DNA from: a virus
Length of the DNA: 64,000 nucleotides
IMG/VR virus record: IMGVR_UViG_3300032047_002388
Coordinates: 32,001-96,000 of that record
Reading direction: 5' to 3' (one strand)
In this document: in pieces, positions 4,446 to 60,709 of the stretch
Layout of the letters: every line of letters starts with the position of its first letter
Position numbering within the stretch: position 1 is the stretch's first letter
Notes under the pieces: generated by a model
Databases searched by the model: none
What the model saw: only the letters and a program-made list of their open reading frames with translations
Told to the model about the DNA's origin: nothing
Made by a program: the position numbers and the translations under genes

Positions 4446-4645
4446 GATATCCTTCATATAAGAGACCGATTGAAAGAGTTAATAATAAACTATATGTTAT
4501 ACACGCAGAGTACGAACAACATAAGATAAAGAACGTATCAATGGTAAAAGAATGGTTGGGAGTAGATACTGTATTTAGACAACATTCAAAAGGTACTTAT
4601 ATTTTTTGTGAGGAAATTCAAGATGTAGATTGGGAAAATGTATAA
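4442..4645 (+). CDS. hypothetical protein
   Basis: 67-aa coupled ORF. Confidence 0.6.
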   Translation: MRYPSYKRPIERVNNKLYVIHAEYEQHKIKNVSMVKEWLGVDTVFRQHSKGTYIFCEEIQDVDWENV

Positions 4646-5168
4646 TCAAGAAGTAATATTTACCAAAGAAGAATGTAAACGTATCATTGATATGAATAGT
4701 GGATTTACACAAAGTAAATTAGCTTCTGCAGATGATGGATATAAATCATCGGAAAGGTCAAGTTATGATTCTGTAACTAAGACAACTGATGAGATACGAA
4801 ACCTACTTCTACCAAAATTATCTAAATATGGAGTGATTGAATTATCTAATTACTTTAATATTCTAAGATATGAAAAAGGTCAAGAGTTTAAAAAACATAG
4901 AGATATTGGTCTTAACAAACATACAAACAAACGATACAGAACATTAATTATACAACTATCTAACTTTGATGATTATGAAGGTGGTGATTTGATTGTATGG
5001 GATAACAACGAACAAATAGAAACTGTATGTAATAAAGAGATTGGAAATATGATTTTATTCCCATCTAAACTATTACATCAAGCAAAACCAGTTATAAGTG
5101 GAACACGATATGTAATGACATTTTTTCTTACAAACGAACACTTTAACATAAAAAACACTCTAATTTAA
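4638..5168 (+). CDS. 2OG-Fe(II) oxygenase, prolyl-hydroxylase-like
   Basis: RYEKGQEFKKHRD, YEGGDL, LFPS..LH...PV.SG.RY. Confidence 0.9.
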   Translation: MYNQEVIFTKEECKRIIDMNSGFTQSKLASADDGYKSSERSSYDSVTKTTDEIRNLLLPKLSKYGVIELSNYFNILRYEKGQEFKKHRDIGLNKHTNKRYRTLIIQLSNFDDYEGGDLIVWDNNEQIETVCNKEIGNMILFPSKLLHQAKPVISGTRYVMTFFLTNEHFNIKNTLI

Positions 5169-5964: not shown

Positions 5965-7404
5965 ATGGCACAGATATTTCCAACACCGAACAATGTAAAC
6001 ACTCAACCTATATCAAGAAGGGTTAGTGATAAGTTTAAGAAAATAAAAACTACAACTAACTTAGAAAAGATAAGCATTGTTAACGATTACCCAGTCATTA
6101 GAGGTAGAGAAGAGGATGGAAGTCCAGAAAACATTATATCCTACGCTAAAAGGATTAGAGACCACTACAATATTAAAACATCTGATGAAACAAAACACAA
6201 AGGTGTTCTTACTCCTCCTCATACTCAAGGTGTTGATTACTTTACAAACACAATAAATAGATTATCTCAATTTTATATTGCACCTGATAACTATAATGTA
6301 CCCCTACCAGAACCATTTGGTTATAGAGGATTTGAAGAATGGAAACAAGGTGCTACATTAGTAGAACGTAATTTTGCTGGTAATGCAACTTCATTTAGAT
6401 TTGTTATAGAATTCTTCGAAACTGGTAACAGATATTATAGTAGAAGATTAAGAGATGATTTAAATGAAGCAGACCAAAATGGTAATCCATATTTTACAAA
6501 ACATCTTATACCAACTATTATGATTCAATTGAATCAATTACAAAATTACCAAAAGGCATTCTGGCCACTAGAGGCTGTATGGGATGTACAAGTTCTTGAT
6601 TCACTAGGAAGTGGTTCAACTACTGAGTCTAACGAAATAGAAGTAGTTCAATATATAGATGCGTTGTTAAAAGGTCAACCAGTAACTAGAGATAACAAAT
6701 TAAAATCACCATACAAGAAAGGTACTGTTATATCTACCCATTGGTTTTCTCAAAATCCAAGAGGACTTGGAGATGATGAAACTGCATCATTCCTCGATGT
6801 AGATTTAAGTGGTGGAACAGATGCCGTAGATTCAGCAGGAGATACTGGAGTTGCAGAACCAACGCCAGGTGGAGGAGGAAGTACTCGAACAGTACAAGCA
6901 GATGATGGAACAGATGTTAACATTAGAGGAAATACTGGTAACCTAACAGACCAAGAAGTAGCAAATATATCAGCTGATTTAGGATTCGGACCTGGTACAG
7001 ACGAAACAACTACTGGTACAACATTTGCAGTAGATACTGATGGTGATGGTGAAATTGAATCTATTCTTAATCTAAACGATGACCCTAACTTCGAAACAAC
7101 ATTTGACCCATTTGGAAACGCTATTGGTAACAATGATACTTTTGGTGCAGCTGCAATATTAGGTAACAATTTATCTAATCTACAATCAGACGTACAAAAC
7201 TATAACAACACACAACCTTTAGGTGTTGGTGGTGCTCAAGGAAATTATGCTCCATTTGGTACACCAGGTGAATTCTCATATCAAACGAAATATTTTCAAG
7301 GAACAGAATATATTTGGAATAGAATGAATTCAGGTAAATGGGAGCCAACTTTCACTGCAAGTGGATTTGGTGGATTTGGCTTTAGTGGTGGACTCACCTT
7401 TTAA
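5965..7404 (+). CDS. hypothetical protein, acidic Gly/Thr/Asp-rich C-terminal half; possibly virion-associated
   Basis: 479-aa ORF behind late-type motif; DTDGDGE loop. Confidence 0.6.
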   Translation: MAQIFPTPNNVNTQPISRRVSDKFKKIKTTTNLEKISIVNDYPVIRGREEDGSPENIISYAKRIRDHYNIKTSDETKHKGVLTPPHTQGVDYFTNTINRLSQFYIAPDNYNVPLPEPFGYRGFEEWKQGATLVERNFAGNATSFRFVIEFFETGNRYYSRRLRDDLNEADQNGNPYFTKHLIPTIMIQLNQLQNYQKAFWPLEAVWDVQVLDSLGSGSTTESNEIEVVQYIDALLKGQPVTRDNKLKSPYKKGTVISTHWFSQNPRGLGDDETASFLDVDLSGGTDAVDSAGDTGVAEPTPGGGGSTRTVQADDGTDVNIRGNTGNLTDQEVANISADLGFGPGTDETTTGTTFAVDTDGDGEIESILNLNDDPNFETTFDPFGNAIGNNDTFGAAAILGNNLSNLQSDVQNYNNTQPLGVGGAQGNYAPFGTPGEFSYQTKYFQGTEYIWNRMNSGKWEPTFTASGFGGFGFSGGLTF

Positions 7405-8194: not shown

Positions 8195-10549
8195 ATGAAA
8201 GGTACACTATTTTCTAGTGATTTTATCATCGATGAATCTAATAATCTAAGATTACTAGAGTTTAATACAGACTCTGGTTTTATATCAGATACATTAGCTT
8301 CTCGTTTTGATTTTACTGATTTCATATCAGTACTATCTAGTAACAACATCACTAAACTATCGATTTTATATAAGAGTTGGCACAGAGAATTTGTTGACCA
8401 CTTAAACCAAGCAATTGAAAATGATGCAACTTTCATAACAGAATTTTCAAAGATAGAAGAAGCAGAACATACTGTATATCCAACAAACGTAACCGATGAA
8501 TCAGATAGATTTATTCTAAGAATATGTTACGATGAAAATGCAATATTCGATAGTACCTATTGTAAACAAAGAGTTGAAGTTTTAAAATTATTCCACGATA
8601 ATGATGCAACTGGTTCAATACCAGAGTTTAGAGCTAGTGGTAGTAATTGGGAAGGTACTTCAATGTCATCATCATTAAATCTAACAGCAAATTATCCTGA
8701 TTTAGCAGTAAAAGATTTAAGTGAGAATCACAATCCATTGCAGTTTGCTAAGTTCAACTCTACGTTATCATCAGAATCATCTTCGGCTGATTTACTTGAA
8801 GATTATTGGTGGAACTACTTAGATAGAAGTGACCAATACATGGAAAAGTATCACACCAATCCAACTCAAGTATCGAATGGTAAACAACAAACAGTACGAG
8901 AGTATGGTATCTTATATGGTAGTACTATTGAGTATGTAAGAATTGGTAGTTATACAATCGATTCTTTACTGCCAGTTGTTGATATATCTGGTTATGATGA
9001 TGCCAATAAAGCAGCAGATAATATACCAAACAAACATTACTTTGAATATACAACTAACTTTATCAGAACTAAGAATTGGAAAGATTCATTATTAGATTCA
9101 GAGGTTATAGTTAAATCAGATGGTTCATTTGTTTCGGTTGATGAAGCAATCATAGGTGATAATATAAAATCATATATTGTAAGTGGTTCACCTGATACTG
9201 ATGATGTAGATGTATTTGGTTCTTGGTCTTATGATGGTTCAACACTTCCATCGGGTTCTGAAGTAACATCATCTAATATCACATCTTTCAGTTCTGAATC
9301 ATTAGTATATGGAACTGGTATAGAACTTGTATTACCAACTGAAGAAACTATATATTTTGCACCATATAAAAACATATTAACATATAACTCATCATCCGAT
9401 GAATTTAAGTTTAAATCAGCACATACACTTCTACCAGGAGATGGTGGGGATTATCTTATAGATGGAACAGGTGGATTAATACCAATATCACAATCTAATA
9501 CATTTATATTAAACGATTCAAATCAAAATGAATATTATCAAGTTGACGTTGAGACAACCGATACATTCTTTATTTCTGCTTCAACTCCATTTGTAGTACA
9601 CAACGCACCATGTTTTATCGCAGGTACTAAAGTTCATATAGAAGAAAAAGGAATAACAAACATAGAAGATGTAGAAGTTGGTGATAAAGTAATTTCATAT
9701 AATCACGATACTGATACTGTTGAGTATAGAGAAGTTTTAAAAGTTAGAGAACAAGAAGGTAAGAATGTTGTAACTTATATATTTGAAAATGGTACAACAC
9801 TTAGTGCTACACCCGACCACCCATTGTTTGTAAATGGTAAAGGATATTCATCTTACTATCCTAAACAAACAAAAGAAGATAGTGGATTTGATGTAGAACA
9901 AATATTATTAGGAGATGAGGTTTTACACATGGACGGGTATGGTGTTGTTATAGATGATATAATAGAAGAACCAGTTACTCATACTGTATATAACCTAGAA
10001 GAAGTAGATGGTAATAATAATTTCTTTGTAGAAAATCTTCTTGCACATAATAGATATCTAACACCTCAAACTTGTTTTGCAGCAGGTACTCAAATCTCAT
10101 TATCAAATGGTGATGTTAAAGATATAGAAGATATAGTTGTAGGTGATGAAGTATTAGGATGGGATGGAGATACGATAGATTCAGCTGAAGTAATAGCAAT
10201 AGACCACAGACATACAGTTGGTTCTCACGCAGATGCTTGTGAATCAATAGGAGATGTACCTTCACTATATACAATAAATGATACTGAAATAGAATTCACA
10301 CCAGAACATCCATTCTTAACTAAAGAAGGTTGGAAATCACTAGTACCAGACCCTAAACAAGAACCATACCTATCAAGTGGAGAATTAAAAATATTAAAAA
10401 TAGGTGATTATATAAACAAAGATGGTGAATGGATAGAGATAGAAGATATAAGAATCATTCGTTCAGATGCAGAAGAACCAGTTTATAATATTACAGTTGA
10501 TAAGTTACATTCTTATATAGCAAATGGAATAATCGTACACAATAAATAA
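8195..10549 (+). CDS. circularly permuted ATP-grasp-like domain fused to three tandem Hint domains
   Basis: N-term DFIIDESNNLRLLEFNT; Hint1 aa298-470 (SLLDSEV...VVHN), Hint2 aa473-619 (CFIAGT..TPDHP..LAHN), Hint3 aa627-783 (CFAAGT..TPEHP..IVHN). Confidence 0.85.
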   Translation: MKGTLFSSDFIIDESNNLRLLEFNTDSGFISDTLASRFDFTDFISVLSSNNITKLSILYKSWHREFVDHLNQAIENDATFITEFSKIEEAEHTVYPTNVTDESDRFILRICYDENAIFDSTYCKQRVEVLKLFHDNDATGSIPEFRASGSNWEGTSMSSSLNLTANYPDLAVKDLSENHNPLQFAKFNSTLSSESSSADLLEDYWWNYLDRSDQYMEKYHTNPTQVSNGKQQTVREYGILYGSTIEYVRIGSYTIDSLLPVVDISGYDDANKAADNIPNKHYFEYTTNFIRTKNWKDSLLDSEVIVKSDGSFVSVDEAIIGDNIKSYIVSGSPDTDDVDVFGSWSYDGSTLPSGSEVTSSNITSFSSESLVYGTGIELVLPTEETIYFAPYKNILTYNSSSDEFKFKSAHTLLPGDGGDYLIDGTGGLIPISQSNTFILNDSNQNEYYQVDVETTDTFFISASTPFVVHNAPCFIAGTKVHIEEKGITNIEDVEVGDKVISYNHDTDTVEYREVLKVREQEGKNVVTYIFENGTTLSATPDHPLFVNGKGYSSYYPKQTKEDSGFDVEQILLGDEVLHMDGYGVVIDDIIEEPVTHTVYNLEEVDGNNNFFVENLLAHNRYLTPQTCFAAGTQISLSNGDVKDIEDIVVGDEVLGWDGDTIDSAEVIAIDHRHTVGSHADACESIGDVPSLYTINDTEIEFTPEHPFLTKEGWKSLVPDPKQEPYLSSGELKILKIGDYINKDGEWIEIEDIRIIRSDAEEPVYNITVDKLHSYIANGIIVHNK

Positions 10550-10551
10550 TC

Positions 10552-10692
10552 ATGGCAGATAAACCAATCATATATAAAAAAGTAAGTAATCCTTACACAA
10601 GAACTAACAATAGTTTGACAAGTGACCAACAAACAAAGGCCACAAACATCATCGGTCAATTTATAACTTACTTTAAAGCAAAACACTTATAG
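10552..10692 (+). CDS. 46-aa hypothetical protein directly after the Hint gene
   Basis: MADKPIIYKKVSNPYTRTNNSLTSDQQTKATNIIGQFITYFKAKHL, read manually. Confidence 0.6.
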   Translation: MADKPIIYKKVSNPYTRTNNSLTSDQQTKATNIIGQFITYFKAKHL

Positions 10693-12185: not shown

Positions 12186-12701
12186 ATGAATAAAGCAGAC
12201 TATGTTCAGATGCGAATATATGCACCTGATTTTAAAATGCCATGTGAACTTGATGATAGATACTCCTATATTGAGATTTCAGAATATTCCCACGAAAAAG
12301 ATTTACTGAAAATAATCGATAGTATTAACGAAACACTATCTGATTGGAAAACCAGACCTGATGTTGATAATCTTAAAAAAAGATTTGAAGCAGGGAGTTC
12401 TTGTTTTATACAATATTTTAAAGGAGAAGTAACTGGTTGGTTTTGGACTTGTAATTTCTTAACACACGATTGGGTTGAAAAGGTAAAAGATTTACCAACA
12501 CCAAACTCAAACTATTCAGGTGGAACATATGTAATTAAAAAAGTTGCACCTAGAAATGCGGGATATCAACTATATGCATACTGTATTGAGAAAGTAATGA
12601 GTAGAACTGATTATGGATATGCGTATGTAGATAAATGGAACAAAGCACCAATCAGATTAAACTTTAATTGTGGAGCTACTTATATAGATAACTTACTATG
12701 A
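12186..12701 (+). CDS. GNAT-fold acetyltransferase-like protein
   Basis: CFIQYFKGEVTGWFW, TYV...RNAG, YVDKWNKAPIRLNFNCG. Confidence 0.6.
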   Translation: MNKADYVQMRIYAPDFKMPCELDDRYSYIEISEYSHEKDLLKIIDSINETLSDWKTRPDVDNLKKRFEAGSSCFIQYFKGEVTGWFWTCNFLTHDWVEKVKDLPTPNSNYSGGTYVIKKVAPRNAGYQLYAYCIEKVMSRTDYGYAYVDKWNKAPIRLNFNCGATYIDNLL

Positions 12702-13189
12702 TTTACAAAATATCAGAAGAAGAAGTTTCTACATTGGAAAATCTAATTAGTACTACGAGTAAAAGTAAGGATAACCAAGAAGAACAATTAACAGAGACAC
12801 AAGATTATATCAACAATCGTAGGTATGTATTGCCAGATATTGATATAGAATATTATTCTACTGATAATAAAGAACTAAACAAAAAACTTTCAGAGATTTT
12901 AAAGGTAGATGATGTAGTACCAATTACAATACATAAGTTCAAATATGAAAATGGTGCACATTCAAAAAGACACAATGATGTTAACTCTAATCAAACATTT
13001 GTAATAATATTAGAAGATGATTATGAGGGAGGTGATTTTTATTTAAATGATGAGTTAACTGATTTTAGAAATAGAGGAGATGTTGCAACTTATGTGGGTA
13101 AAGAAAGTCCTCACTATGTAACTCCAATAACAAAAGGAACCCGAACTGTATTAGTAGTTTGGTATCCTAAAAAAGATACACTAATATAA
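12698..13189 (+). CDS. 2OG-Fe(II) oxygenase, prolyl-hydroxylase-like
   Basis: HND, DDYEGGDF, H.VTPITKGTR..LV.W. Confidence 0.88.
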   Translation: MIYKISEEEVSTLENLISTTSKSKDNQEEQLTETQDYINNRRYVLPDIDIEYYSTDNKELNKKLSEILKVDDVVPITIHKFKYENGAHSKRHNDVNSNQTFVIILEDDYEGGDFYLNDELTDFRNRGDVATYVGKESPHYVTPITKGTRTVLVVWYPKKDTLI

Positions 13190-14499: not shown

Positions 14500-15285
14500 A
14501 TGTATAGTTACACTTTGTACAATAACGATTGTGTTTTAGATAAAACAACTAACACTATAATTTATAAAGAAGATAGTGAGTGGAAGTTATATGAAAAATG
14601 GAAGAAGGATAATGCTGAAGCTGCTGAGCATGCATGGGCAAGTAAACACAATTTACTATTATGGAACAAAGGTGAACCTATATTAAAAGATGGTGTAAAA
14701 TCATATTATGATAAAGATGGGTTTCTAATAAAAAAAGAAACTACAAATAAAATAGATTATTACAATGCAGATGTTATTTACAAAACTGAACACATTGAAA
14801 ATGACAGAATTGTTTTAATAAAAAAATATTCAGAAAACAAAATATTGTATGAAGAAAAAAACTTTAAATTAAAAACACATAAGGAGTTTGATATAGGAAC
14901 AGGTTCAATTGTTTATTACAAAAAAACCAAAGGAGATTTAGAATATGAAGTTTGGTATGATAATAAAATTGTAATCAAATCTTTCTTGAGAAAATTAGAT
15001 AAAATATTAAAGTTTACAGAATACTTTACTGGTATGAATTCTGTTAGTAAAAAATTACATTATTCAAATAACAATATGTATAAGTGTACCACATACTATA
15101 CATCTGGTCAAGTTAGGGGATGTGGTTTAATATCCAACGATGATAAGATGCAAGGTGAGTGGATATTCTATCATCACAACAATGAGGTTGAATCTAAACA
15201 CAACTTTAGTGATGGTAAGTTAATTGGTAAATCATTTTTGTTTTACGAAAATGGAAAGTTATATAAAGAAGTAAATCATGATTAG
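14500..15285 (+). CDS. MORN-variant repeat (YwqK-like) protein
   Basis: YYTSGQV, QGEWIFYH.N, DGKLIG...FYENGKL repeats. Confidence 0.65.
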   Translation: MYSYTLYNNDCVLDKTTNTIIYKEDSEWKLYEKWKKDNAEAAEHAWASKHNLLLWNKGEPILKDGVKSYYDKDGFLIKKETTNKIDYYNADVIYKTEHIENDRIVLIKKYSENKILYEEKNFKLKTHKEFDIGTGSIVYYKKTKGDLEYEVWYDNKIVIKSFLRKLDKILKFTEYFTGMNSVSKKLHYSNNNMYKCTTYYTSGQVRGCGLISNDDKMQGEWIFYHHNNEVESKHNFSDGKLIGKSFLFYENGKLYKEVNHD

Positions 15286-16141
15286 TTTTATTATAGCATT
15301 TGCTAGTAAAGGTGATAATTTATATCGATGGAAAGATACTGATGAGGGGATGATAATATTATCCACAATACTCTGTATTAAAAACATAAATAAGATATTT
15401 GATGTACCTAAAGAAATTATATTAGTTGACAACACTAATAGCTTTCCCAATATAGAAATCCCAAATCTTAAGATAGTAAAAGGATTACAATACAAAAAAG
15501 AATTTACAGAAGAAGAAATTTCAAAGTACAAGATAGATGATGTAACTAATCATAGTATGTGGGCATCAATTGCTTACAATATAGGTATCGAACATTCTAT
15601 CGGAGATTACATTGTACTACAACATAACGATATATTTTATCACGAGAATCTTTTACCAACTCTACGCGATATATTGGAGTATAATGAGTATGTTTCGGTA
15701 GATTCTAAACACCTTAGTTTGACAGGATATTTAGGGAATAAAGATATTATTGATTCACTAGATATTGATTTTGAAATTGGATATGAAAATGGGGGATATG
15801 TAAAACAAAAGCTATTTGGATTAGCAGATGCATATTTCTTTATGTGTAAAAAAGAATTCTTTGATGATTATTCTGTTGATTGGGGATATGGGGATACAAA
15901 TCATGGAGCAACAATAAAATGTTTAACTAATGGAGATTCTTTCTTACATATAGAACCATTCTTTGGAAACAGTAATTATATTACTGATGATTCAAACTCA
16001 TATATTCTTTTTGGTAAAAAATTTATCACACATCTAAAAGGCGGGTTTTCAGAAAATAAACTATCGTTTAAAAAAGAAAACAACGAATATAATATGGATG
16101 AAACAAACAACTATATAGAACAACTTAAACAACTATCATGA
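15278..16141 (+). CDS. GT2-like glycosyltransferase
   Basis: EIILVDN, AYNIGIEHSIGDYIVLQHNDI. Confidence 0.8.
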   Translation: MISFIIAFASKGDNLYRWKDTDEGMIILSTILCIKNINKIFDVPKEIILVDNTNSFPNIEIPNLKIVKGLQYKKEFTEEEISKYKIDDVTNHSMWASIAYNIGIEHSIGDYIVLQHNDIFYHENLLPTLRDILEYNEYVSVDSKHLSLTGYLGNKDIIDSLDIDFEIGYENGGYVKQKLFGLADAYFFMCKKEFFDDYSVDWGYGDTNHGATIKCLTNGDSFLHIEPFFGNSNYITDDSNSYILFGKKFITHLKGGFSENKLSFKKENNEYNMDETNNYIEQLKQLS

Positions 16142-16863
16142 AAACATTTATAATTAGAATAAGTAGTAATAAAGATTCAGTTAGGTCTGCACAACAAACA
16201 ATAGATTCAGCAAGAAGTGTAGGGTATAATGAACCAATTGAAATATTCGAAGCAATAAAACCAACTGAGTGGAAATCCATTTTACCATATCCAAACACCT
16301 TTAATGACTATGCAAGACCAGATAATGTTGCTGCATGTTTTGCCTCTCATTATTTATTATGGGAAAAGTGTGTAGAACTAAATGAACCTATATTAATTTT
16401 AGAACATGATGCAATATTCAAAACTAATATACCTGATATAGATTTCGATATGTGTGTTAACTTTGGTAGACCAAGTTATATCAGACCTAATAAAATTGTT
16501 TACGATGAACCAAAAGAGGGATTAGATATTGTTAACCAAGTTAACTTTTTAGGTCATCATGCATATGCTATGAAACCAAAAGCAGCTAAAATATTTTGTG
16601 ATGATGTAAAGAAAAAAGTATTAACACCAAACGATGTGTGGATTGAAAGAAACTCATATCCATGGCTAGAAGAATACAGACCATTTCCAATTCATGCAGA
16701 TACTGATTTCTCTACTATACAAACTATACTACCAGATGACCATCCAATTATGGAATCATATTATAAAGTTACAAGTAAGGAGAATCCTAATTACGAATAC
16801 TTAGAAAAATATTTTCCTCATGTTCTAACAGGTCCACAATCAGAAAGACATATAAATGTATAA
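16138..16863 (+). CDS. GT25-family glycosyltransferase
   Basis: CFASHYLLWEKCVELNEPILILEHDA, GHHAY..P..A. Confidence 0.85.
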   Translation: MKTFIIRISSNKDSVRSAQQTIDSARSVGYNEPIEIFEAIKPTEWKSILPYPNTFNDYARPDNVAACFASHYLLWEKCVELNEPILILEHDAIFKTNIPDIDFDMCVNFGRPSYIRPNKIVYDEPKEGLDIVNQVNFLGHHAYAMKPKAAKIFCDDVKKKVLTPNDVWIERNSYPWLEEYRPFPIHADTDFSTIQTILPDDHPIMESYYKVTSKENPNYEYLEKYFPHVLTGPQSERHINV

Positions 16864-17692
16864 TAAAGTAAATTTACCAATTGGATGGACTGAAGAAATT
16901 CCAAAATATTGGACAGACCCAAGTAAGATAAACGCATGGGTTGGTGAACCTATTGAATCTAATAAGTTTCTTTTAGTTAGTTGGAGAATGGCAGGTTCAG
17001 AATTTTGTAAAGAGTTAATACGAGAGAATTATCCAGAAACAGTAAATATAAACCATTGGTCAAAGAGTCATATTATCATAGGAAAGAAACTTACTCAACA
17101 GTTAATTGATAATGCAAACACCAAAGTGTTCATGATAATATCAGACCCGAGAGATGTTGCAAGTAACTTAGTTAGTTTTGAGAATGGATTTGGGTTACAC
17201 TACCATGGTCATCATGATTATACACATGGTACGTCTGATTCAAATAGTGTAACATTTTTAAATGAAGTTGCCGATAAACAAATTGAGTTAGTAAATCATT
17301 ATACAAAAAGATTTGGTGATAACTGTATTGTACTGCGATATGAAGATGCATTTCAAAACCAAGATAAATTTCACAATCAAGTATCTAAGTTTATCGGATA
17401 CGAACCATTAGGTATTGATGATGTTAGAAAATATAAATGGTCAATCTATAAAAATGTAGGGTTGTTTAGAAACCACTTTGACTCAGATGTTTTAACCAAA
17501 CACTACAATGAGTACAAATGGTTTTATGATAAATGGGAATATCCAATTGAAGGAATGAATGATTTAAGATATGGATGGCATAGATTTAATGATAAGGTAA
17601 ATGGGAGACAACTTACCGAAGATTATAAACAGATGTTAAAAAGAAATGGAGTTTCCGAATCCGATAGAACAAACAATATAGATGAATTCTAA
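16856..17692 (+). CDS. sulfotransferase-like protein
   Basis: WRMAGSE (degenerate PAPS loop), KSH, DPRDVASN, LRYED. Confidence 0.65.
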   Translation: MYNKVNLPIGWTEEIPKYWTDPSKINAWVGEPIESNKFLLVSWRMAGSEFCKELIRENYPETVNINHWSKSHIIIGKKLTQQLIDNANTKVFMIISDPRDVASNLVSFENGFGLHYHGHHDYTHGTSDSNSVTFLNEVADKQIELVNHYTKRFGDNCIVLRYEDAFQNQDKFHNQVSKFIGYEPLGIDDVRKYKWSIYKNVGLFRNHFDSDVLTKHYNEYKWFYDKWEYPIEGMNDLRYGWHRFNDKVNGRQLTEDYKQMLKRNGVSESDRTNNIDEF

Positions 17693-19157
17693 GAAAAATG
17701 TTATAGTAGTTTCGGCAAGAAGAAGTGGTACGCATCTTCTTCATGATTTAATAGTTAATAATTTTGGATATGAAAGTACTAATTACAACTATATAGATTA
17801 CTATAAATTTACAGATGAAATGGAAGGGTTTGAATCATCTATGAATGAAGGCGGTAAAATAACTTGGACTCATTCTCATGATTATAAGGATTACCACAAA
17901 TACAATCATAGTATTGATAACCAAAATAAATTAGATAGATTCTTTTCCGAATCTAAAATTATATTAGTTTACAGAGATGTTAGAGATATAATAACATCAT
18001 GTTATCACAGACCAAGATATAAATCTAAATATAAAACATTTGATAACTTTTACAAGAACTTCGATTTCGATGGATGTGAATTGATTGACCAGAAATACGA
18101 TAATATGTTTGAATTATTACTTCAGTATTATAAGAATTGGTTTTCTGTTTACATGGCAAAAGAACTTCTTGATATCGATATGGAAGTAATATCGTTTGAA
18201 GAAATAATAAAAGATTACGATTTTTCAGTATCTAAGATAGGAAAGTTTTTAGAACAAACACCAACGGGAGTTGATGTTAGGTTACCAAATAAAAATAATG
18301 AAAACATTATTTACACAACCAATGATTTTAGAAATGGAAAGATTAATGATTGGCTTTCGACTATGGAACAGCAATTTGGTACAGAGTTGGGTGAAAGGTT
18401 TTACCATGACTTAGGTGCAGGTTTAGATTGTTTTTTAAACGATATAAAGATACATAAATATCATAATCCTCAGCGAAATAAGTTTTACAAACCCATTCCA
18501 CTAAATGTTGAAAAAGATTTAACATCTGAATTAGAACAATATAAAAATAAATTTAGGTTCTTCGGTGAAAGAGGTGCAATAGAATTAATAGAGAATAGAT
18601 ACAAAGATTCAATACAGAAATCAACAGATTTCAGATACTATCACAAAGTTTTTTATTACGATAAATATGTATTGAAATTTCACTATCCATGTAAAGCAAG
18701 TTTAGATAAAAAAACATTTGATTCTACAATACCTACTGCATCAAAAGAACAACTCTTAACGATTCTTAAAACAAATGATTTTCTATATGAAAATGGTATT
18801 GTTCCTAAACTATATCATGCAGGAATCTACAAAGGAATTTTGTATGTTATACAAGAAAGATATTCTGAAGAAAGTATAATTTATAACAAATACAATTTTC
18901 ATCCTAAGTGGGATAATTTTTTCCAATGGGCAGTTGATTTGGGTTTAGACAGACAATTAAAAGAATATTTTTTCAAAGCATTAGAGAACAATATTTTACT
19001 AACTGATTTAATCAATGTATATAATAATGCAATTGATAAGAATGGTAATATAAAATACTTTGATTTAGATGGTATAAAATATTTCGAAACAAAAGAAGAA
19101 ATGATTAACTCAGAAGATTATAAAAACTCAATAGGTATTATAAAAGACATAACATGA
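17682..19157 (+). CDS. sulfotransferase fused to C-terminal kinase-like domain
   Basis: SARRSGTHLL, YRDVRDIITS, FRNGKINDW; then YVLKF, VPKLY, TDLINVYN, KYFDLDG. Confidence 0.7.
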   Translation: MNSKKNVIVVSARRSGTHLLHDLIVNNFGYESTNYNYIDYYKFTDEMEGFESSMNEGGKITWTHSHDYKDYHKYNHSIDNQNKLDRFFSESKIILVYRDVRDIITSCYHRPRYKSKYKTFDNFYKNFDFDGCELIDQKYDNMFELLLQYYKNWFSVYMAKELLDIDMEVISFEEIIKDYDFSVSKIGKFLEQTPTGVDVRLPNKNNENIIYTTNDFRNGKINDWLSTMEQQFGTELGERFYHDLGAGLDCFLNDIKIHKYHNPQRNKFYKPIPLNVEKDLTSELEQYKNKFRFFGERGAIELIENRYKDSIQKSTDFRYYHKVFYYDKYVLKFHYPCKASLDKKTFDSTIPTASKEQLLTILKTNDFLYENGIVPKLYHAGIYKGILYVIQERYSEESIIYNKYNFHPKWDNFFQWAVDLGLDRQLKEYFFKALENNILLTDLINVYNNAIDKNGNIKYFDLDGIKYFETKEEMINSEDYKNSIGIIKDIT

Positions 19158-19846
19158 AAGGATTTGTAATATATGTAGATACTTCTTCTAAGAGTAAGGA
19201 AAGTGCAAAACATACTCAAAGTATGTTTGGTGATATTGATATTACTTTATTCAAAGGGGTAGATAAAACAAATGTTTGGCAAACTTTTATTGATTCTGAG
19301 TTAAGTATGTTAGATATAAAACACTTTGGAGGAGGAAAAGTTGATTCAGAAATAGCTACATTTTTTTCTCATTATAACGTCTGGTTAAAATGTATAGAAT
19401 TGAATGAACCTATATTAGTATTAGAACACGATGCTATTATTATTGGTGAAATTGATTTTAGTATTTTAAATAAATTTGAAGGTGATTTATTAAACTTAGG
19501 TGAACCAAATTGGGGAAGTATCACTTTAGATTCACATCCATCTCCATGGCTAGATAAACCAAAAGGAATTTTTTTACGAGATGTATGTAATAACAAACAC
19601 GATATCTATAAAATGTGGAACAACGAAAAGGGGTTGTGTCATTGTGATACTATGTGGTTATTTGGGGCTCATGCATATTTATTAAACCCAAGTGGTGCAA
19701 TAAAATTAGTTGAAGGTACTAAGAAAGGAATCCTTCCAGCAGATATTTATATAAGACAAGAACTCATAGATATCTATGATTACTTACCTCACCCAATAAA
19801 ACAAAATGGAGATTTTTCATTAATACAAAGATGGATGGATGAATAA
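19154..19846 (+). CDS. GT25-family glycosyltransferase
   Basis: SHYNVWLKCIELNEPILVLEHDA, GAHAYLLNPSGA, PADIYI. Confidence 0.85.
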   Translation: MKGFVIYVDTSSKSKESAKHTQSMFGDIDITLFKGVDKTNVWQTFIDSELSMLDIKHFGGGKVDSEIATFFSHYNVWLKCIELNEPILVLEHDAIIIGEIDFSILNKFEGDLLNLGEPNWGSITLDSHPSPWLDKPKGIFLRDVCNNKHDIYKMWNNEKGLCHCDTMWLFGAHAYLLNPSGAIKLVEGTKKGILPADIYIRQELIDIYDYLPHPIKQNGDFSLIQRWMDE

Positions 19847-31723: not shown

Positions 31724-32455
31724 ATGCCAATAAAAAAGAAGAGAAGAAAAAAATCCAAAATGTATTTTGGTACTCCTGCACAAGAAGCAATCATAGAGTA
31801 CAATAAATCTAAAGACCCTAAGGAGAGGAACGAGATTTACAAAACAAGAATTAAGTATCCATTTGAGAAACTTGCAGAGAATGTTTTAAATACATTTAAG
31901 TTTACTTACTTTGATGTACCAAAAAGAGATATACAAACAGAAGTGGTATCTACTATGGTAGAAAAAATTCATATGTTCAAAGAAGGCAAGGGTAAGGCAT
32001 TTTCTTATTTTACTATTATTGCAAAGAATCATTTGATTCTAAAAAACAATGGTAATTATAAAAGGTGGAAACAAAACGCACTGATGTCCGAAATGCCTCC
32101 AACATGGAATCCAGAAAATGATTTCTATCATCAACAAGAAAATTCTGAGATGAAACAATTTAAAAAATTGATGTTAGAATATTGGGATAAAAATTTAACT
32201 AAAGTATTCACTAAGAAAAGAGATATTCAAATTGCAGATGCCGTACTAGAGTTATTTAGAAGAGCAGAACATATTGAAAACTTTAACAAAAAACATCTTT
32301 ACTTATTGATTAGAGAAATGACAGATGTTAAAACACATTACATAACAAAAGTAGTTAACGTAATGAAACAACATCAGAGAAAGATTTTAAATGAATACCT
32401 AGAAGTAGGAGAATTTACAACCGATAGTAGAGATGAGTTTAGTTGGGAAGGGTAA
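31724..32455 (+). CDS. phage RNA polymerase sigma factor-like protein (candidate late sigma)
   Basis: Region-2-like F...KGKAFSYFTIIAKN, reminiscent of T4 gp55-type sigmas. Confidence 0.65.
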   Translation: MPIKKKRRKKSKMYFGTPAQEAIIEYNKSKDPKERNEIYKTRIKYPFEKLAENVLNTFKFTYFDVPKRDIQTEVVSTMVEKIHMFKEGKGKAFSYFTIIAKNHLILKNNGNYKRWKQNALMSEMPPTWNPENDFYHQQENSEMKQFKKLMLEYWDKNLTKVFTKKRDIQIADAVLELFRRAEHIENFNKKHLYLLIREMTDVKTHYITKVVNVMKQHQRKILNEYLEVGEFTTDSRDEFSWEG

Positions 32456-44370: not shown

Positions 44371-50853
<6,483 letters not shown>

Positions 50854-56304: not shown

Positions 56305-57554
56305 TATACATTATAGATAAACCATACAATCAAGGGTTGTATGTACAATGGGTAGATATGTTAAAAGCAACTAATTTACCCTACGAATCAATTGTGATTG
56401 ATAATTTAGAAATAGATATGAACTTTGATGAATATCTTTCAAAACAAAAACAAATTGATTATATCAACTCTAAGTGTAAACCAGAGGATACACTAATAAT
56501 AGATTCATCATTTACAAGAAAAGCTAATGGTGAACACTTACCATATCCTCAGTTGTATGAGTTTTCAAAAAAGTTAAATTCTGAAAATATTATTGTAATG
56601 CATCCCGATACTGGTTACAGTGCTAATGATGCATATAGTAAAAACAAATTAAAAATAATATCTCCAACATACTCTTTAAAAAATTGGAGTGATGATACAA
56701 TAAAAGATTCTTACAATTTTTATTTGTTCAATGGTGGTTATCAAGATATACGATGGTTATCTAAAATGGTTTTCCATAGATATGAACAAATGTTAAGAGC
56801 AAAGAAGTTTTTATCACATAATGGAGTATATAAAATACAGAGGACTCTAATTCAAAAAACATTAGAAGATAATGATTTAATGAAAGATTCTTTCTTCTCA
56901 TATAATGCATACAATATCTTCGATGAAAATTGTAATCATAACAAAGATTGGGAAATTGATTATAAAAACTTTACACAAATACTTTTTAATAGAGATGTGA
57001 ATCCATCACTTAGATTAGATGAGTTCATCGAACAAGATATAAAACCATATTATACTAACGAAGAACATGAAGCTCTCTTAAAACAACTGCCAGTGGTTTT
57101 AGATTATATTCCTAATTTATCCAATGTAGACCAATATGCATTTACACTACCATACACTTCTAATTCGTATGTAGAAATAATTGGATGTACTAGTTTGAGT
57201 GGTGATGGAGATGAGATATATACATCTGAAAAAATATTTAAACCATTTATGGCTTTCTTAATACCAATCTTTATAGGTCAAAAAGGATTGATTGAAGTAT
57301 TACAAAAACTTGGATTCAAATTAGATTTCGATGGGTTGATAGATTTAAGTTATGATAAAATAGATTGTCATCTTACACGAACAAAGATGGCATTAGAAAA
57401 CGTAAAAGAAATAGGAAAACTTTCCATAAAACAATTACACAGCAGATATTGGAGATGTAGAGAAGATTTACAACACAATCAAGAATTAATGAAATCTTTA
57501 TCTCATAGACAAGTAAGTGCTTTCAGAGAAATAATAAACAAACAAGTTATATGA
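56301..57554 (+). CDS. GT-B/GT10-like protein related to the C-terminal domain of 27512-29638
   Basis: KKFLSHNG...R, LPVVLD, SYVEII, TSEKIFKPF...PIF.G....L..LGF...SYD. Confidence 0.55.
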   Translation: MIYIIDKPYNQGLYVQWVDMLKATNLPYESIVIDNLEIDMNFDEYLSKQKQIDYINSKCKPEDTLIIDSSFTRKANGEHLPYPQLYEFSKKLNSENIIVMHPDTGYSANDAYSKNKLKIISPTYSLKNWSDDTIKDSYNFYLFNGGYQDIRWLSKMVFHRYEQMLRAKKFLSHNGVYKIQRTLIQKTLEDNDLMKDSFFSYNAYNIFDENCNHNKDWEIDYKNFTQILFNRDVNPSLRLDEFIEQDIKPYYTNEEHEALLKQLPVVLDYIPNLSNVDQYAFTLPYTSNSYVEIIGCTSLSGDGDEIYTSEKIFKPFMAFLIPIFIGQKGLIEVLQKLGFKLDFDGLIDLSYDKIDCHLTRTKMALENVKEIGKLSIKQLHSRYWRCREDLQHNQELMKSLSHRQVSAFREIINKQVI

Positions 57555-60500
57555 TAATTAATAAAGTTTATCATTTGGCAGATTTACATATCAGAAATCT
57601 CCAAAGACACAAAGAATATAAAATCATATTCAAGAATTTTTTAAAACAAGTTAAAGAAGATAATATAGAGGATTCTCTCATCTATATTGCGGGTGATATT
57701 GCTCATGCCAAAACAGAGATGTCACCTGAACTTGTACATGAAATAAGTTGGTTCTTATCAGAATGTGCAAAGTTAAGAGAGGTAGTATTAATCACAGGTA
57801 ACCATGATTGTAACCTAAATAATTCCCATAGACTCGATGTACTCACACCTATTATCGAAAACCTTCGAAATAATCGAATTCATTATCTTCGTGATACTGG
57901 TGTCTATAATATCCATAATCTTACTTTCTGCGTTTATTCTATATTGGATAACAAGGAAAATTGGCCTAAAGGAGATACCATTGATGGAGAAAATAAAATC
58001 GTTTTATTTCATGGACCAGTAAACAAAGCCCAAACTGATATCGGCTATACCGTATCATCAAACTCATTTCATGTAGATATGTTTGATGGATTCGATATGG
58101 CCATGTTGGGTGATATTCATAAGAGACAAACGTTTGGTGAAGGATATGAGCACGTTGCATATGCTGGTTCTATGGTTCAACAAAATCATGGTGAGTTACT
58201 AGAGAATCATGGATACTTACTTTGGGATATTCCAACACGAACATTTACAGAACATCACATTCATAATGATTATGGGTTCTTAACTGTTGATGTAGTTGAT
58301 GGTAAGATACCACAATGGGTTTATGATGAGATTGGTACAAAACTTCCAAAACACCCAAGATTACGTTTACGTTTCACTAAAACAGAAGCTAGTGATATGA
58401 AACGTTGTATTACTGAATTAAAGAAATTATTCAAGGTACAAGAGGTTACAGTAACAAGAACTGATACAATAGGACAATTAAAAACAAACACTAAGATAAA
58501 TAAAAATATTGTTGGTAATGTTAGAGAAGAGACCTTTCAGAATCAGTTAATCAGAGATTACCTACAAAGACAATATTTACTAGAACCAGAAGAACTAGAT
58601 AAGATACAAGAAATAAATACAGAACTAAATTCTCAGTTCTCAAATCACGAATTTGCTGAAAACATTTTATGGACACCAAAGGATTTTCAGTTTTCTAATA
58701 TGTTCTCATATGGTGAAAATAACCTAGTTAGATTCGATAGAGGACAAGGAATCATCGGAATCTTTGCACCAAACGCAAGTGGTAAATCATCGTTATTTGA
58801 TGCACTCTGTTTCTGTATTTACGATAAAACATCTCGTACTGCCTCATCAAAAAACATCCTAAACAATCGTAAGGATAAGTTCTATTGTAAGTTTAATTTT
58901 GAAATAGATGGTGTAAACTTCTATATTGAGAGAACTGCTAAATGGACACGAAGAGGTACTAATTTAAAAGTTGATGTAAACTTTTGGAAAGAAGATGCGG
59001 GTATAATCGAATCTCTTAATGGTGAACAACGTAGAGAAACTAATAAGAATATTGAGAAGTATTTAGGTAAATTCGAGGACTTTGTACTAACAACACTTTC
59101 ACTACAAGGTAACAACGCATTGTTCATTGATAAATCACAATCGGAAAGAAAAGAAACTCTTTCTCAATTTATTGGTGTAGATATCTTCGATAAACTATAT
59201 CAACTAGCAAGTGATGAAAACAGAGATAATGCAACACTTATCAGAAAATTTAAGAGTGATGATTTCACTCAAAAACTTGCCGACATCGATACTCGATTAA
59301 AAGAAAACAAAAACGATTATAAACTTTTAGAGTTAAATCAAAAGGCATTAAACGAGGAGGATGAACTACTGAATAAACGACTTTTATCACTAAATGAGAA
59401 GATTGTTAAACTAAATTCTGATAGTGGTGTATCGATTGAAGAATTAGAAAAAAGATTAAATAATTTAAAAAATAAAAAAGAATCTGTTGAAAAACAGAAA
59501 ACATCTCTACAAGAACGATTAGACCATAGAGAAAAATTACACATAGATTTAGATGAAATTCTTGATAAATTTGATGAAGAAGATTTAGAAGAAGGAATCA
59601 CAAAATTAAAAAGATTACAAACAGATTTAACGCATGTTGATACAGAAATAGAAAAAGTTAACATTAAACTAGAATCTTTGTATGAAAGAAAACAACACCT
59701 AGATTCACATAAATACAATGAAGAATGTGATATTTGTATGGAAAATTCTAAATCTATTTTAGAAACAAAATCAGAGGTAGAAACAAAAATAAAAGATGGT
59801 GAAGGTTATTTACAAGATTTTGAAAAACAAAAGTTAGATTTGAATATCGAAATCGATTCTTTAAAAAGTTACGAAAAAGAGTGGGAAAACTTAAAAGAGG
59901 CAAAAGAAAAAGAAGATAAGATTGATAGAGAAATAAGTACACTTATTAACAAGTTATCAACAACAGAAACCGAAGAATACAAGCTTCAATCACAAATCTC
60001 CCAGCAAGAGTATCTTGTACAAGAGTACTACAAACACGAAAAACAGATACAAAAGAACAAAGAAATACGAAATGATATATCTGGTGTTAGAGAAAAAATT
60101 ACAATTGTAAAAGATGAACTTAAAGGATACAATACAGATATTCTAAAATTAAATGGTAAAATATCTGCACTTCAAAATCAAAAAGAAACAATCGAAGATA
60201 GGATAAATGAGGTTAAAAACCTTGAATCTCAAAGTAAGTTGTATGATTACTATTTAAATGCATTAAGTAGAGATGGTGTATCATATGAGTTGATTGAAAA
60301 GGCTTTACCTATGTTAGAAGGTGAAGTAAACAATATCTTAGGACAGATTGTAGATTTCGGAATGCAACTAGAAATCGATGGTAAGAACATTAATGCATAT
60401 CTTGTGTATGGTGACCAAAGATGGAGTTTGGAAATGTGTAGTGGTATGGAAAGGTTTATTAGTGGTTTGGCAATCAGAGTTGCTCTAATCAACGTATGTA

Positions 60501-60709
60501 ACCTTCCAAGACCAAATTTCCTTGTTATAGATGAAGGATTTGGTACACTAGATAGTGAGAACCTACAATCCCTATTTATGTTATTTACATACCTCAAAAC
60601 TCAATTTGATTTCGTAATGGTAATCTCACACATTGACTCGATGAGAGACGTAGTTGATGATTTAGTAGAGATTAAGAAAGAAAAAGGGTTCTCAAACGTT
60701 AAGTATTAA
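57551..60709 (+). CDS. fused Mre11/SbcD nuclease - Rad50/SbcC ATPase (gp47-gp46-like)
   Basis: ADLH, AGD, GNHD, LGDIH, YAGS; APNASGKSS, Q-loop, CDIC hook, CSGMERF signature, VIDEGFG.LD, ISH. Confidence 0.93.
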   Translation: MIINKVYHLADLHIRNLQRHKEYKIIFKNFLKQVKEDNIEDSLIYIAGDIAHAKTEMSPELVHEISWFLSECAKLREVVLITGNHDCNLNNSHRLDVLTPIIENLRNNRIHYLRDTGVYNIHNLTFCVYSILDNKENWPKGDTIDGENKIVLFHGPVNKAQTDIGYTVSSNSFHVDMFDGFDMAMLGDIHKRQTFGEGYEHVAYAGSMVQQNHGELLENHGYLLWDIPTRTFTEHHIHNDYGFLTVDVVDGKIPQWVYDEIGTKLPKHPRLRLRFTKTEASDMKRCITELKKLFKVQEVTVTRTDTIGQLKTNTKINKNIVGNVREETFQNQLIRDYLQRQYLLEPEELDKIQEINTELNSQFSNHEFAENILWTPKDFQFSNMFSYGENNLVRFDRGQGIIGIFAPNASGKSSLFDALCFCIYDKTSRTASSKNILNNRKDKFYCKFNFEIDGVNFYIERTAKWTRRGTNLKVDVNFWKEDAGIIESLNGEQRRETNKNIEKYLGKFEDFVLTTLSLQGNNALFIDKSQSERKETLSQFIGVDIFDKLYQLASDENRDNATLIRKFKSDDFTQKLADIDTRLKENKNDYKLLELNQKALNEEDELLNKRLLSLNEKIVKLNSDSGVSIEELEKRLNNLKNKKESVEKQKTSLQERLDHREKLHIDLDEILDKFDEEDLEEGITKLKRLQTDLTHVDTEIEKVNIKLESLYERKQHLDSHKYNEECDICMENSKSILETKSEVETKIKDGEGYLQDFEKQKLDLNIEIDSLKSYEKEWENLKEAKEKEDKIDREISTLINKLSTTETEEYKLQSQISQQEYLVQEYYKHEKQIQKNKEIRNDISGVREKITIVKDELKGYNTDILKLNGKISALQNQKETIEDRINEVKNLESQSKLYDYYLNALSRDGVSYELIEKALPMLEGEVNNILGQIVDFGMQLEIDGKNINAYLVYGDQRWSLEMCSGMERFISGLAIRVALINVCNLPRPNFLVIDEGFGTLDSENLQSLFMLFTYLKTQFDFVMVISHIDSMRDVVDDLVEIKKEKGFSNVKY

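Follow-up and report, generated by a model that had tools for sequence, protein, structure and literature searches.

The gene at positions 8195 to 10549 of the window, i.e., the whole 64,000-nucleotide stretch analyzed here (positions 32,001 to 96,000 of IMG/VR virus record IMGVR_UViG_3300032047_002388), codes for a ligase-like domain followed by three consecutive Hint domains, called Hint1, Hint2, and Hint3 hereafter. The residues between and behind these domains, Ala-Pro (AP), RYLTPQT, and a single Lys, are probably micro-exteins, i.e., the pieces of one short Lys-terminated tail that is interrupted by two Hints resembling type-A bacterial intein-like (BIL) domains. We favor this reading because close relatives devoid of these two Hints have an uninterrupted short tail that ends near a Lys, and because a sister clade has a conserved six-Cys peptide in the same place. 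A first-pass annotation of the sequence had proposed that AP and RYLTPQT are released as products in themselves, a claim that the comparison of homologs does not support: linker 1 (AP in the window protein) is absent from 16 of the 131 proteins with two intact Hints, and linker 2 (RYLTPQT) occurs as 91 distinct sequences of 1 to 17 residues.

The layout given in that annotation, Hint1-AP-Hint2-RYLTPQT-Hint3-K, proved exact in its coordinates (Table 1). The junctions read V-V-H469-N470 / AP / C473...H618-N619 / RYLTPQT / C627...H782-N783 / K784 / stop, and positions 9605 to 10072, from Ala471 to Thr626, comprise linker AP, the entire Hint2, and linker RYLTPQT. The gene is present in a single copy in the 128,139-nucleotide virus record. 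A homolog search with the whole protein yielded 410 sequences at an E value of ≤1e-3. The 120 listed ones were used and combined with the query and with 56 full-length genes from viral contigs, giving a comparative set of 177 sequences, 168 of them unique. Domains were delimited with hidden Markov models built from the domains of the window protein itself, and five fragments (L003, P0052, P0074, P0083, and P0112) stayed in the counts. The number of intact Hints per protein was 0 in 2, 1 in 30, 2 in 131, and 3 in 5 of the 168 proteins.

In the two-Hint forms, linker 1 is most often AP (96 proteins), followed by SP (10), a single A (7), and GR and GF (one each). Linker 2 was readable in 130 of these 131 forms. 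It has a median length of 7 residues, is rich in Pro (19%) and Gly (14%), and is constrained only at its ends, with R (104), K (17), Y (4), F (3), or L (2) as the first residue and T (74), C (35), or another residue (21) as the last. Its shortest versions consist of a single Arg or Lys, and in some homologs the whole inter-Hint content is just K or WK. Protein P0002, which is 98% identical to the window protein, differs from it at 17 of 784 positions, two of them within the 7-residue linker, for about 0.15 expected (binomial P of ~0.01). Of all parts of the protein, the linkers thus change fastest, and they may be missing or down to a single residue. Linker conservation across homologs had been named as a check on the idea of linker products, and its outcome, variation in both length and sequence, goes largely against that idea. 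The tail past the last Hint is a Lys alone in 148 of the 168 proteins, Lys plus one or two residues in 8, a Vint-type Hint or a truncation in 8, and something else in 4. When the flanks of the 157 window-clade proteins were joined, the resulting segments were 1 to 19 residues long (median, 9), and 110 of the 112 distinct ones had a Lys among their last three residues.

The intact Hints come and go around this tail. A tree of the ligase+Hint1 region of 124 representatives, computed with FastTree, has two clades, each with a support of 99, one Cys-rich (30 rows) and one with plain tails (94 rows), to which the window protein belongs. On this tree, intact Hints switch between present and absent at least 18 times. 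For instance, P0124 carries three Hints with the flanks AP, RF, K, and KL, whereas its sister P0125 (support, 99) lacks Hints and has a tail of 7 residues with KL at its end. The sister pairs P0223/P0225, P0224/P0230, and P0241/P0260 likewise differ in Hint content. Within every pair, joining the flanks of the protein with Hints gives a segment similar to the tail of the Hint-less sister in both length and terminal Lys.

A profile restricted to the ligase domain uncovered a wider family, with 353 representatives (50% identity clusters) at an E value of ≤1e-3 and 275 at ≤1e-10. The ligase domain begins at residue 1 in 143 of the 150 representatives listed, the other 7 being mostly fragments. 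Tail types were read in the 146 representatives that were not part of the earlier set. Past ligase-Hint1, the tail is (i) 1 to 10 residues long and contains Lys; (ii) a Cys-rich peptide of ~30 to 90 residues; (iii) a Cys-rich peptide followed by one Hint and then by KK, KKF, or similar; (iv) made up of Cys-rich inserts of 30 to 60 residues that occupy the linker slots of multi-Hint forms (P0208, P0217, and P0215); or (v) long, rich in Cys, Gly, and aromatic residues, and weakly similar to the endosialidase chaperone domain (L123, P0220, P0248, P0255, and P0257). Three of the four type (v) tails tried matched Peptidase_S74 with 21.6, 18.0, and 17.2 bits, all below the Pfam cutoff of 22. On sequence grounds, this is suggestive of a second self-cutting module in the same position.

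Scanning viral contigs with the single protein gave no confirmed relative, and alignment-based scans returned 202 matching stretches in the first instance and 298 in the second, for which an alignment of Cys-rich forms was used. The best 80 of these 298 stretches were kept and contained 77 complete sister-clade genes. Of the latter, 74 code for a Cys-rich tail of 27 to 33 residues, 2 for such a tail followed by a Hint and KK or KKQY, and 1 for a tail followed by an S74-like region. The 52 distinct Cys-rich tails contain exactly six Cys in 46 cases, and all 52 have a Lys within their last four residues. An alignment of 21 proteins with Cys-rich tails shows no variation in the His-Asn pair and in four tail Cys, and next to none in a fifth Cys. 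The Pro/Gly richness of linker 2 resembles the stretch that precedes the final Lys of the six-Cys tails. As a conserved six-Cys peptide fills the slot after Hint1 in this clade, release of what follows Hint1 is credible for the family. The more general idea that Hint chemistry sets free something located past the ligase is thus supported at the family level, and not for AP or RYLTPQT themselves. A tblastn search of 50,697 phage records gave just three weak matches, which covered Hints only and came from Ruminococcus phages, in a collection that may leave out the lineage of the window itself.

The two intact Hints were readily identified. Pfam detected Hints at residues 472 to 619 and 627 to 783 (Intein_splicing, 9.2e-15; Hint, 1.3e-13; PT-HINT, 1.4e-09), and Hint2 and Hint3 are 31% identical to each other (BLASTP, 2e-12; hhalign, 99.9%). 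Their nearest solved relatives by sequence are the BIL domain of C. thermocellum (PDB 2lwy, 3.6e-08), the best match for Hint2, and BIL2 of BUBL (6y75/6tmm, ~5e-06) for Hint3. The first Cys (Cys1; C473 and C627), the T..H motif, and the C-terminal His-Asn (HN) pair (H618-N619 and H782-N783) are invariant in 47 of 47 aligned sequences, and HN is found at 296 of the 306 intact-Hint ends in the family. The residue after the Hints (+1) is K in 178 cases, R in 110, Y in 4, F in 3, L in 2, N in 2, and E in 1, with the two N following Hint1 of Hint-less proteins and the E coming from a truncated protein; it is never Cys, Ser, or Thr.

Hint2 and Hint3 thus look like type-A BILs according to the sequence definition in PMC4031507. 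This source describes type-A BILs as forming an N-terminal thioester, as cutting at their C terminus by Asn cyclization, and as splicing through attack of the freed amine of the C-fragment on the thioester, with cleavage products dominating. The Cys, Ser, or Thr at +1 that typifies class 1 inteins was not found (A471, R620, and K784), yet, as expected of class 1 inteins, the host tail exists uninterrupted in Hint-less sisters. The highest Pfam score on Hint2 was obtained not with a Hint model but with AXH, the ataxin-1/HBP1 module (residues 474 to 577, positions 9611 to 9925; 1.5e-21), and ataxin-1 and HBP1 AXH chains of the PDB were matched at 2.6e-04 to 2e-03. These sequence matches hint at a relationship between the Hint and AXH domains.

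Hint1 escaped detection by Pfam, and BLASTP gave no significant match between Hint1 and Hint2 or Hint3. An AlphaFold model of residues 290 to 472, based on 62 sequences, had a predicted local distance difference test score (pLDDT) of 93.4. Its top structural match was BIL2 of Tetrahymena BUBL1 (Z, 18.9; root mean square deviation [rmsd], 2.1; 144 residues aligned), alongside the C. thermocellum BIL of PDB entry 2lwy (Z, 18.7; rmsd, 1.5; 138 residues aligned), the Hedgehog autoprocessing domain (Z, 17.1), and many inteins (Z, 14 to 17). Out of the 36 chains at a Z of ≥2, 30 were at a Z of ≥8, all inteins or other Hint domains. Foldseek gave an E value of 2.7e-09 for the model, and hhalign aligned residues 278 to 470 with Hint3 end to end over 135 columns (60% probability; E value, 8.5e-5). 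Residue 1 of several inteins aligns with residue 9 of the model, i.e., S298. Across the 47 aligned sequences, including the window protein, this column holds G (33), A (7), F (3), T (2), S (1), and V (1), and there is therefore no conserved nucleophile in Hint1. The T..H motif of block B was not found in Hint1 of these 47 homologs, whereas H469 and N470 are invariant in all of them. In the larger set, Hint1 ends with HN in 164 of 168 homologs and has the Asn in 168 of 168. Hint1 is thus, by its modeled structure, a true Hint fold that keeps only the residues for C-terminal cleavage. The first-pass annotation had noted that N-terminal catalytic residues are lost in Hint1 alone, and our analysis agrees with its corollary that Hint1 should therefore stay attached to the ligase.

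A side observation concerns the fate of the excised domains. In one-Hint forms, the residue that follows Hint1 is often F, Y, L, or W; together with R and K, these are destabilizing N-terminal residues in bacteria. Hints cut off with such N termini might be marked for degradation.

Two further variants were noted in the family. Eight homologs of 932 to 968 amino acids (P0058, P0064, P0065, P0072, P0076, P0084, P0089, and P0110) have an extra segment of ~180 residues between the ligase and Hint1. Others end with a Vint-type Hint (L014 to L017, L020 to L023, L031, L034, L053, P0137, and P0140; Pfam PF14623, 1e-08 to 1e-14 in the four tried). As they are devoid of the C-terminal His-Asn-Lys, the Vint-type Hints would cut only at their N terminus.

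The domain ahead of Hint1 is an ATP-grasp amide ligase by its predicted fold, in keeping with the ligase-like domain proposed earlier. The structure predicted for residues 1 to 295 (pLDDT, 92.4) had YjfC, YgiC, eukaryotic glutathione synthetase, and glutathionylspermidine synthetase as its best Foldseek matches (E values, 1.5e-06 to 1e-04). VIA-align retrieved the same group with Z scores of 9.6 to 8.8, and RimK, LysX/ArgX, and tubulin-ligase-like proteins with Z scores of 5 to 6. Residues D9, E22, N24, R109, D119, Y122, K173, and Y241 are invariant in alignments of 40 to 65 sequences. In a comparison of the ligase-domain profile with PDB sequences, there was one weak motif match, of the first strands to D..LE.NT of D-Ala-D-Ala ligase (E value, 3). 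Residues 1 to 470 matched no Pfam family at an E value of ≤1, hence the lack of Pfam membership for the ligase domain, and a PHROGs search with the gene and its 8 neighbors returned nothing informative on the ligase or on the small open reading frame (ORF) that follows it.

That small ORF codes for 46 residues and is a regular companion of the gene. An ORF of 41 to 52 residues follows the gene in all 56 window-clade loci, at ≤24 nucleotides from the stop codon in 54 of them and at 87 and 100 nucleotides in the other two. Behind the 77 complete sister-clade genes, a homologous ORF was found in 67 cases and a second type of small ORF in 8 (75 of 77 in total), and hhalign linked the small ORFs of the two clades with a probability of 95.6% (E value, 1.1e-08). 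PHROGs held no match for the 46-residue protein. Its Tyr8, Lys9, and Phe37 are nearly invariant, and it usually ends with K-x-K-H-(L/S/T). A model of its complex with residues 1 to 470, computed with alignments as input, reached an ipSAE score of 0.84 (0.82, 0.84, and 0.87 in the individual runs), compared with 0.01 for the best of three controls; the mark applied to this score is passed by 116 of 157 solved complexes and by 2 of 215 mismatched pairs, figures that are only a rough guide here since our own alignments were used. The pLDDT of the partner was 86 to 90, and at least 85% of the contacts agreed between runs. In the modeled interface, the N-terminal strand of the partner (residues 7 to 11) pairs with residues 433 to 441 of Hint1, and its C-terminal helix lies on residues 10 to 20 and 132 to 136 of the ligase. 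The 46-residue protein is thus predicted to clamp the ligase and Hint1 together.

TABLE 1 Features of the ligase-Hint gene and of the small ORF behind it, with positions counted in the window
Feature	Positions	Strand	Description
Whole gene (ORF)	8195..10549	+	784 aa: ATP-grasp ligase (by predicted fold), degenerate Hint, two intact BIL-type Hints, terminal Lys
ATP-grasp amidoligase domain	8195..9070	+	Residues 1-292; predicted fold of glutathionylspermidine synthetase / YgiC-YjfC / eukaryotic glutathione synthetase type
Hint1	9071..9604	+	Residues 293-470; degenerate Hint fold (modeled) without Cys1 or TxxH; ends with His469-Asn470
Linker 1	9605..9610	+	Ala471-Pro472; read as probable micro-extein
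Hint2	9611..10051	+	Residues 473-619; type-A-BIL-like; Cys473, Thr539..His542, His618-Asn619
Linker 2	10052..10072	+	Arg620-Tyr-Leu-Thr-Pro-Gln-Thr626; read as probable micro-extein
Hint3	10073..10543	+	Residues 627-783; type-A-BIL-like; Cys627, Thr702..His705, His782-Asn783
C-terminal flank	10544..10546	+	Lys784, a single residue, then stop
46-aa ORF	10552..10692	+	Starts 2 nucleotides past the ligase-Hint stop; predicted partner subunit of ligase+Hint1

We propose that the basic unit of the family would be a ligase, a cleavage-only Hint1, and a Lys-terminated tail, and that the intact Hints would be BIL-type inteins lodged within the tail. Each intact Hint would form a thioester at its own Cys1 (C473 or C627) and would be cut at its own end by cyclization of its Asn (N619 or N783). 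The flanks would then be rejoined by the freed amine or merely left cut, as for type-A BILs, and rejoining would place AP, RYLTPQT, and K in succession on Asn470. Hint1, capable of Asn cyclization only, would finally detach the remaining downstream part from the ligase. In such a scheme, the linkers would be spacers subject to constraints on their junction residues and not conserved bioactive products, and the conserved working parts would be the ATP-grasp ligase, the His-Asn pair of Hint1, the catalytic residues of the BILs, the terminal Lys, and the 46-residue partner. Cleavage, splicing, release, and an action of the ligase on the tail are all steps that we infer. That the terminal Lys of the window protein matches the Lys of uninterrupted tails is an argument, if not a proof, for flanks that are rejoined rather than only cut.

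Several points weigh against this proposal. From its sequence, splicing and plain cleavage cannot be told apart for this protein. In 131 of 168 proteins, the two Hints occupy the same fixed sites, a better fit to a domesticated function than to passive inteins. AP is kept in 96 of the 131 two-Hint forms, leaving room for a role of the dipeptide in that subclade. By analogy with BUBL BIL2, which forms an isopeptide with Lys according to PMC8616854, the terminal Lys could be kept for catalysis by the Hint itself instead of belonging to a product. Six complete proteins end with a Vint-type Hint devoid of HN-K, and the terminal Lys is therefore not universal. The counts given here refer to representatives of 90%- or 50%-identity clusters and to loci, which are not independent lineages. 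Lastly, the number of Hints on the tree was scored with a regular expression that wrongly returned zero for five or more rows whose Hints are of the Vint type or truncated (P0137, P0151, P0160, P0184, and P0213).

It is highly improbable that the linkers are the products themselves, i.e., that they are freed by the upstream Asn, activated by the downstream Cys1, and converted into cyclo(Ala-Pro) or a cyclic heptapeptide or transferred to another molecule. The geometry singled out in the first-pass annotation is right, in that the upstream Asn can free the amine of the linker and the downstream Cys1 can activate its carboxyl group. Furthermore, AP or SP is present in 106 of the 131 two-Hint forms, a dipeptide thioester that ends with Pro readily cyclizes to a diketopiperazine, and Cys-rich inserts occupy the same slots in P0208, P0217, and P0215. 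However, Pro at position −1 hinders the N-S acyl shift in commonly used inteins, the number of Hints ranges from 0 to 3, linker 1 is reduced to a single Ala in 7 forms in addition to the 16 that have none, and the many versions of linker 2 include a single Arg or Lys. Some peptide natural products ordinarily have hypervariable cores, and variability alone does not exclude a product; it is linkers that are absent or only one or two residues long that argue against it. The transfer chemistry could also be directed at other proteins, as in BUBL, with the Hint thioesters passing the upstream polypeptide (ligase-Hint1-AP or Hint2-linker) without ATP to a target protein, on a Lys of which an isopeptide would form. 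BUBL BIL2 is among the closest solved relatives of the phage Hints, the +1 residue is always basic or aromatic, and BIL2 joins a ubiquitin-like domain to Lys, as reported in PMC8616854. Nevertheless, no cargo, ubiquitin-like or otherwise, lies between the Hints of the phage protein, Hint2 is mostly followed by Arg (104 of 130), which is a weak nucleophile, and the target protein is hypothetical, so that we would hardly expect such a donor function.

Two other explanations place the function in the tail as a whole or in its removal. In the former, the rejoined Lys-terminated tail would be a tethered substrate of the ligase, which would add to, or close on, the C-terminal Lys or carboxylate with the required help of the 46-residue subunit, before release by Hint1. 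We find this possible and on balance doubtful. The C-terminal Lys is the one tail feature common to the clades, and enzymes with a fold like that of the ligase activate C-terminal carboxylates. D9, E22, and N24, putative ligands of metal, do not vary, and the Hint1 Asn is kept in 168 of 168 homologs. The conserved six-Cys tail of the sister clade and the predicted contacts of the partner with both domains point the same way. Against it, the complex model gives no view of the position of the tail, tails reduced to K or WK make a peptide product unlikely in some lineages, and a single-turnover enzyme is costly. Alternatively, the Hint cassette would be a self-removing block, a pro-region or timer that holds the ligase inactive or unassembled, with nothing past Asn470 being functional after release. 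The linkers are variable, Hint-less relatives appear to be complete genes, and cleavage is dominant in type-A BILs (PMC4031507), all of which would suit such a block. It is improbable all the same, as it leaves unexplained both the invariance of all catalytic residues of Hint2 and Hint3 and of the terminal Lys, when one cut at Asn470 would be enough, and the conserved six-Cys tail of the sister clade. Among these explanations, interrupted micro-exteins remain the reading that we favor.

All genes of the window are on one strand, with a G+C content of ~31%. They code for a gp25-like baseplate protein, PhoH, thymidylate synthase, UvdE, peptide deformylase, a carbamoyltransferase, a primase, and several 2-oxoglutarate [2OG]-Fe(II) oxygenases, a content indicative of a large aquatic myovirus of the T4-like kind that lacks close relatives in culture. 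Neighbors of the ligase-Hint gene (positions 1031 to 1657, 4638 to 5168, 12698 to 13189, and 15278 to 19846) include 2OG-Fe(II)/PhyH-type oxygenases, two family-25 glycosyltransferases, a family-2 glycosyltransferase, and a sulfotransferase. A homolog of the oxygenase at 4638 to 5168 lies near the gene in 38 of the 59 loci that were kept from the first viral scan, in the flank examined. Tandem dioxygenase clusters of cyanophages are proposed, in PMC2938197, to modify peptides or metabolites, and the ligase-Hint gene sits in such a neighborhood. No C-terminal tag common to the neighboring enzymes was evident in the window. Farther away, three ORFs on the plus strand deserve mention: one of 1,052 codons (57551 to 60709) that combines a calcineurin-like phosphoesterase with AAA_23 and resembles a fused SbcCD- or gp46-gp47-kind nuclease-ATPase, one of 2,160 codons (44371 to 50853) without a Pfam match, and one of 479 codons (5965 to 7404), rich in Gly, Asp, and Thr and with a Gly-Phe-rich end, the last two being without family assignment.

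Among large phages of marine and fresh waters, the family is very common, and its arrangement of known self-processing domains is new, in a widespread phage module that is undescribed. Our searches of the literature on tandem BIL/Hint domains, on ATP-grasp and Hint proteins of phages, and on Cys-rich intein-like phage proteins yielded no description of the ligase-Hint architecture, with the proviso that the amidoligase survey of Iyer et al. 2009 may bear on this point. Should the micro-extein reading hold, small cyclic peptides would not be derived from the tiny linkers, which nonetheless mark unusual intein-like chemistry and would provide a natural case of inteins that interrupt a segment of a few residues. 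The family as a whole joins an amide ligase to a half-disabled Hint able only to cut off its own tail, a six-Cys peptide in the sister clade, and this would be a novel manner of producing and freeing peptides with neither leader nor protease. To intein chemists, it offers natural BILs that are preceded by Pro (−1) and followed by Arg or Lys (+1), and to phage biologists, a conserved three-part module made of the ligase-Hint protein, its tail, and the 46-residue partner. A more ambitious picture, which we put forward tentatively as an unlikely one, is that of a large undescribed phage system in which the ligase carries its own substrate tail and works on its Lys end with the 46-residue subunit, the cleavage-only Hint releases the product, and the two BIL-type inteins, possibly acting as conditional switches, first reassemble the tail. 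If true, this would represent a leader-free, protease-free, single-turnover route to modified peptides.

Each part of the protein has known counterparts. Residues 1 to 292 have a fold in common with glutathionylspermidine synthetase, YgiC/YjfC, and eukaryotic glutathione synthetase. A conserved D...E.N motif stands at the beginning of the phage domain. This domain differs from the group in that the structural matches start ~90 to 310 residues into the chains of the known enzymes. It is also fused to Hints and has no sequence-level membership in a family that we found. Hint2 and Hint3 share with the C. thermocellum BIL the Hint fold, Cys1, the T..H motif of block B, the His-Asn pair, and the lack of Cys, Ser, or Thr at +1. 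BILs were reportedly described by Amitai and coworkers in 2003 in variable regions of bacterial proteins. Unlike described type-A BILs, those of the phage occur two in tandem behind a crippled third Hint and at the far C-terminal end of a phage ATP-grasp ligase, and their flanks measure 2, 7, and 1 residues. As in cyclization of the SICLOPPS type (split intein circular ligation of peptides and proteins), a peptide lies between the C-terminal part of one intein element and the N-terminal part of another. In SICLOPPS, however, both parts come from one split intein, and the peptide begins with a nucleophile; the flanking parts belong here to two separate complete Hints, and the linkers begin with Ala and Arg. 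A parallel in layout is found in the BUBL loci of ciliates (BIL - ubiquitin-like - BIL), where a segment likewise lies between the C terminus of an upstream Hint and Cys1 of a downstream one. Lys takes part in product formation in BUBL, as described in PMC8616854, and the phage gene also has a terminal Lys. The phage system departs from BUBL in that its segments are only 2 and 7 residues long and hold no folded ubiquitin-like cargo, and in that it is viral/bacterial rather than eukaryotic and fused to a ligase.

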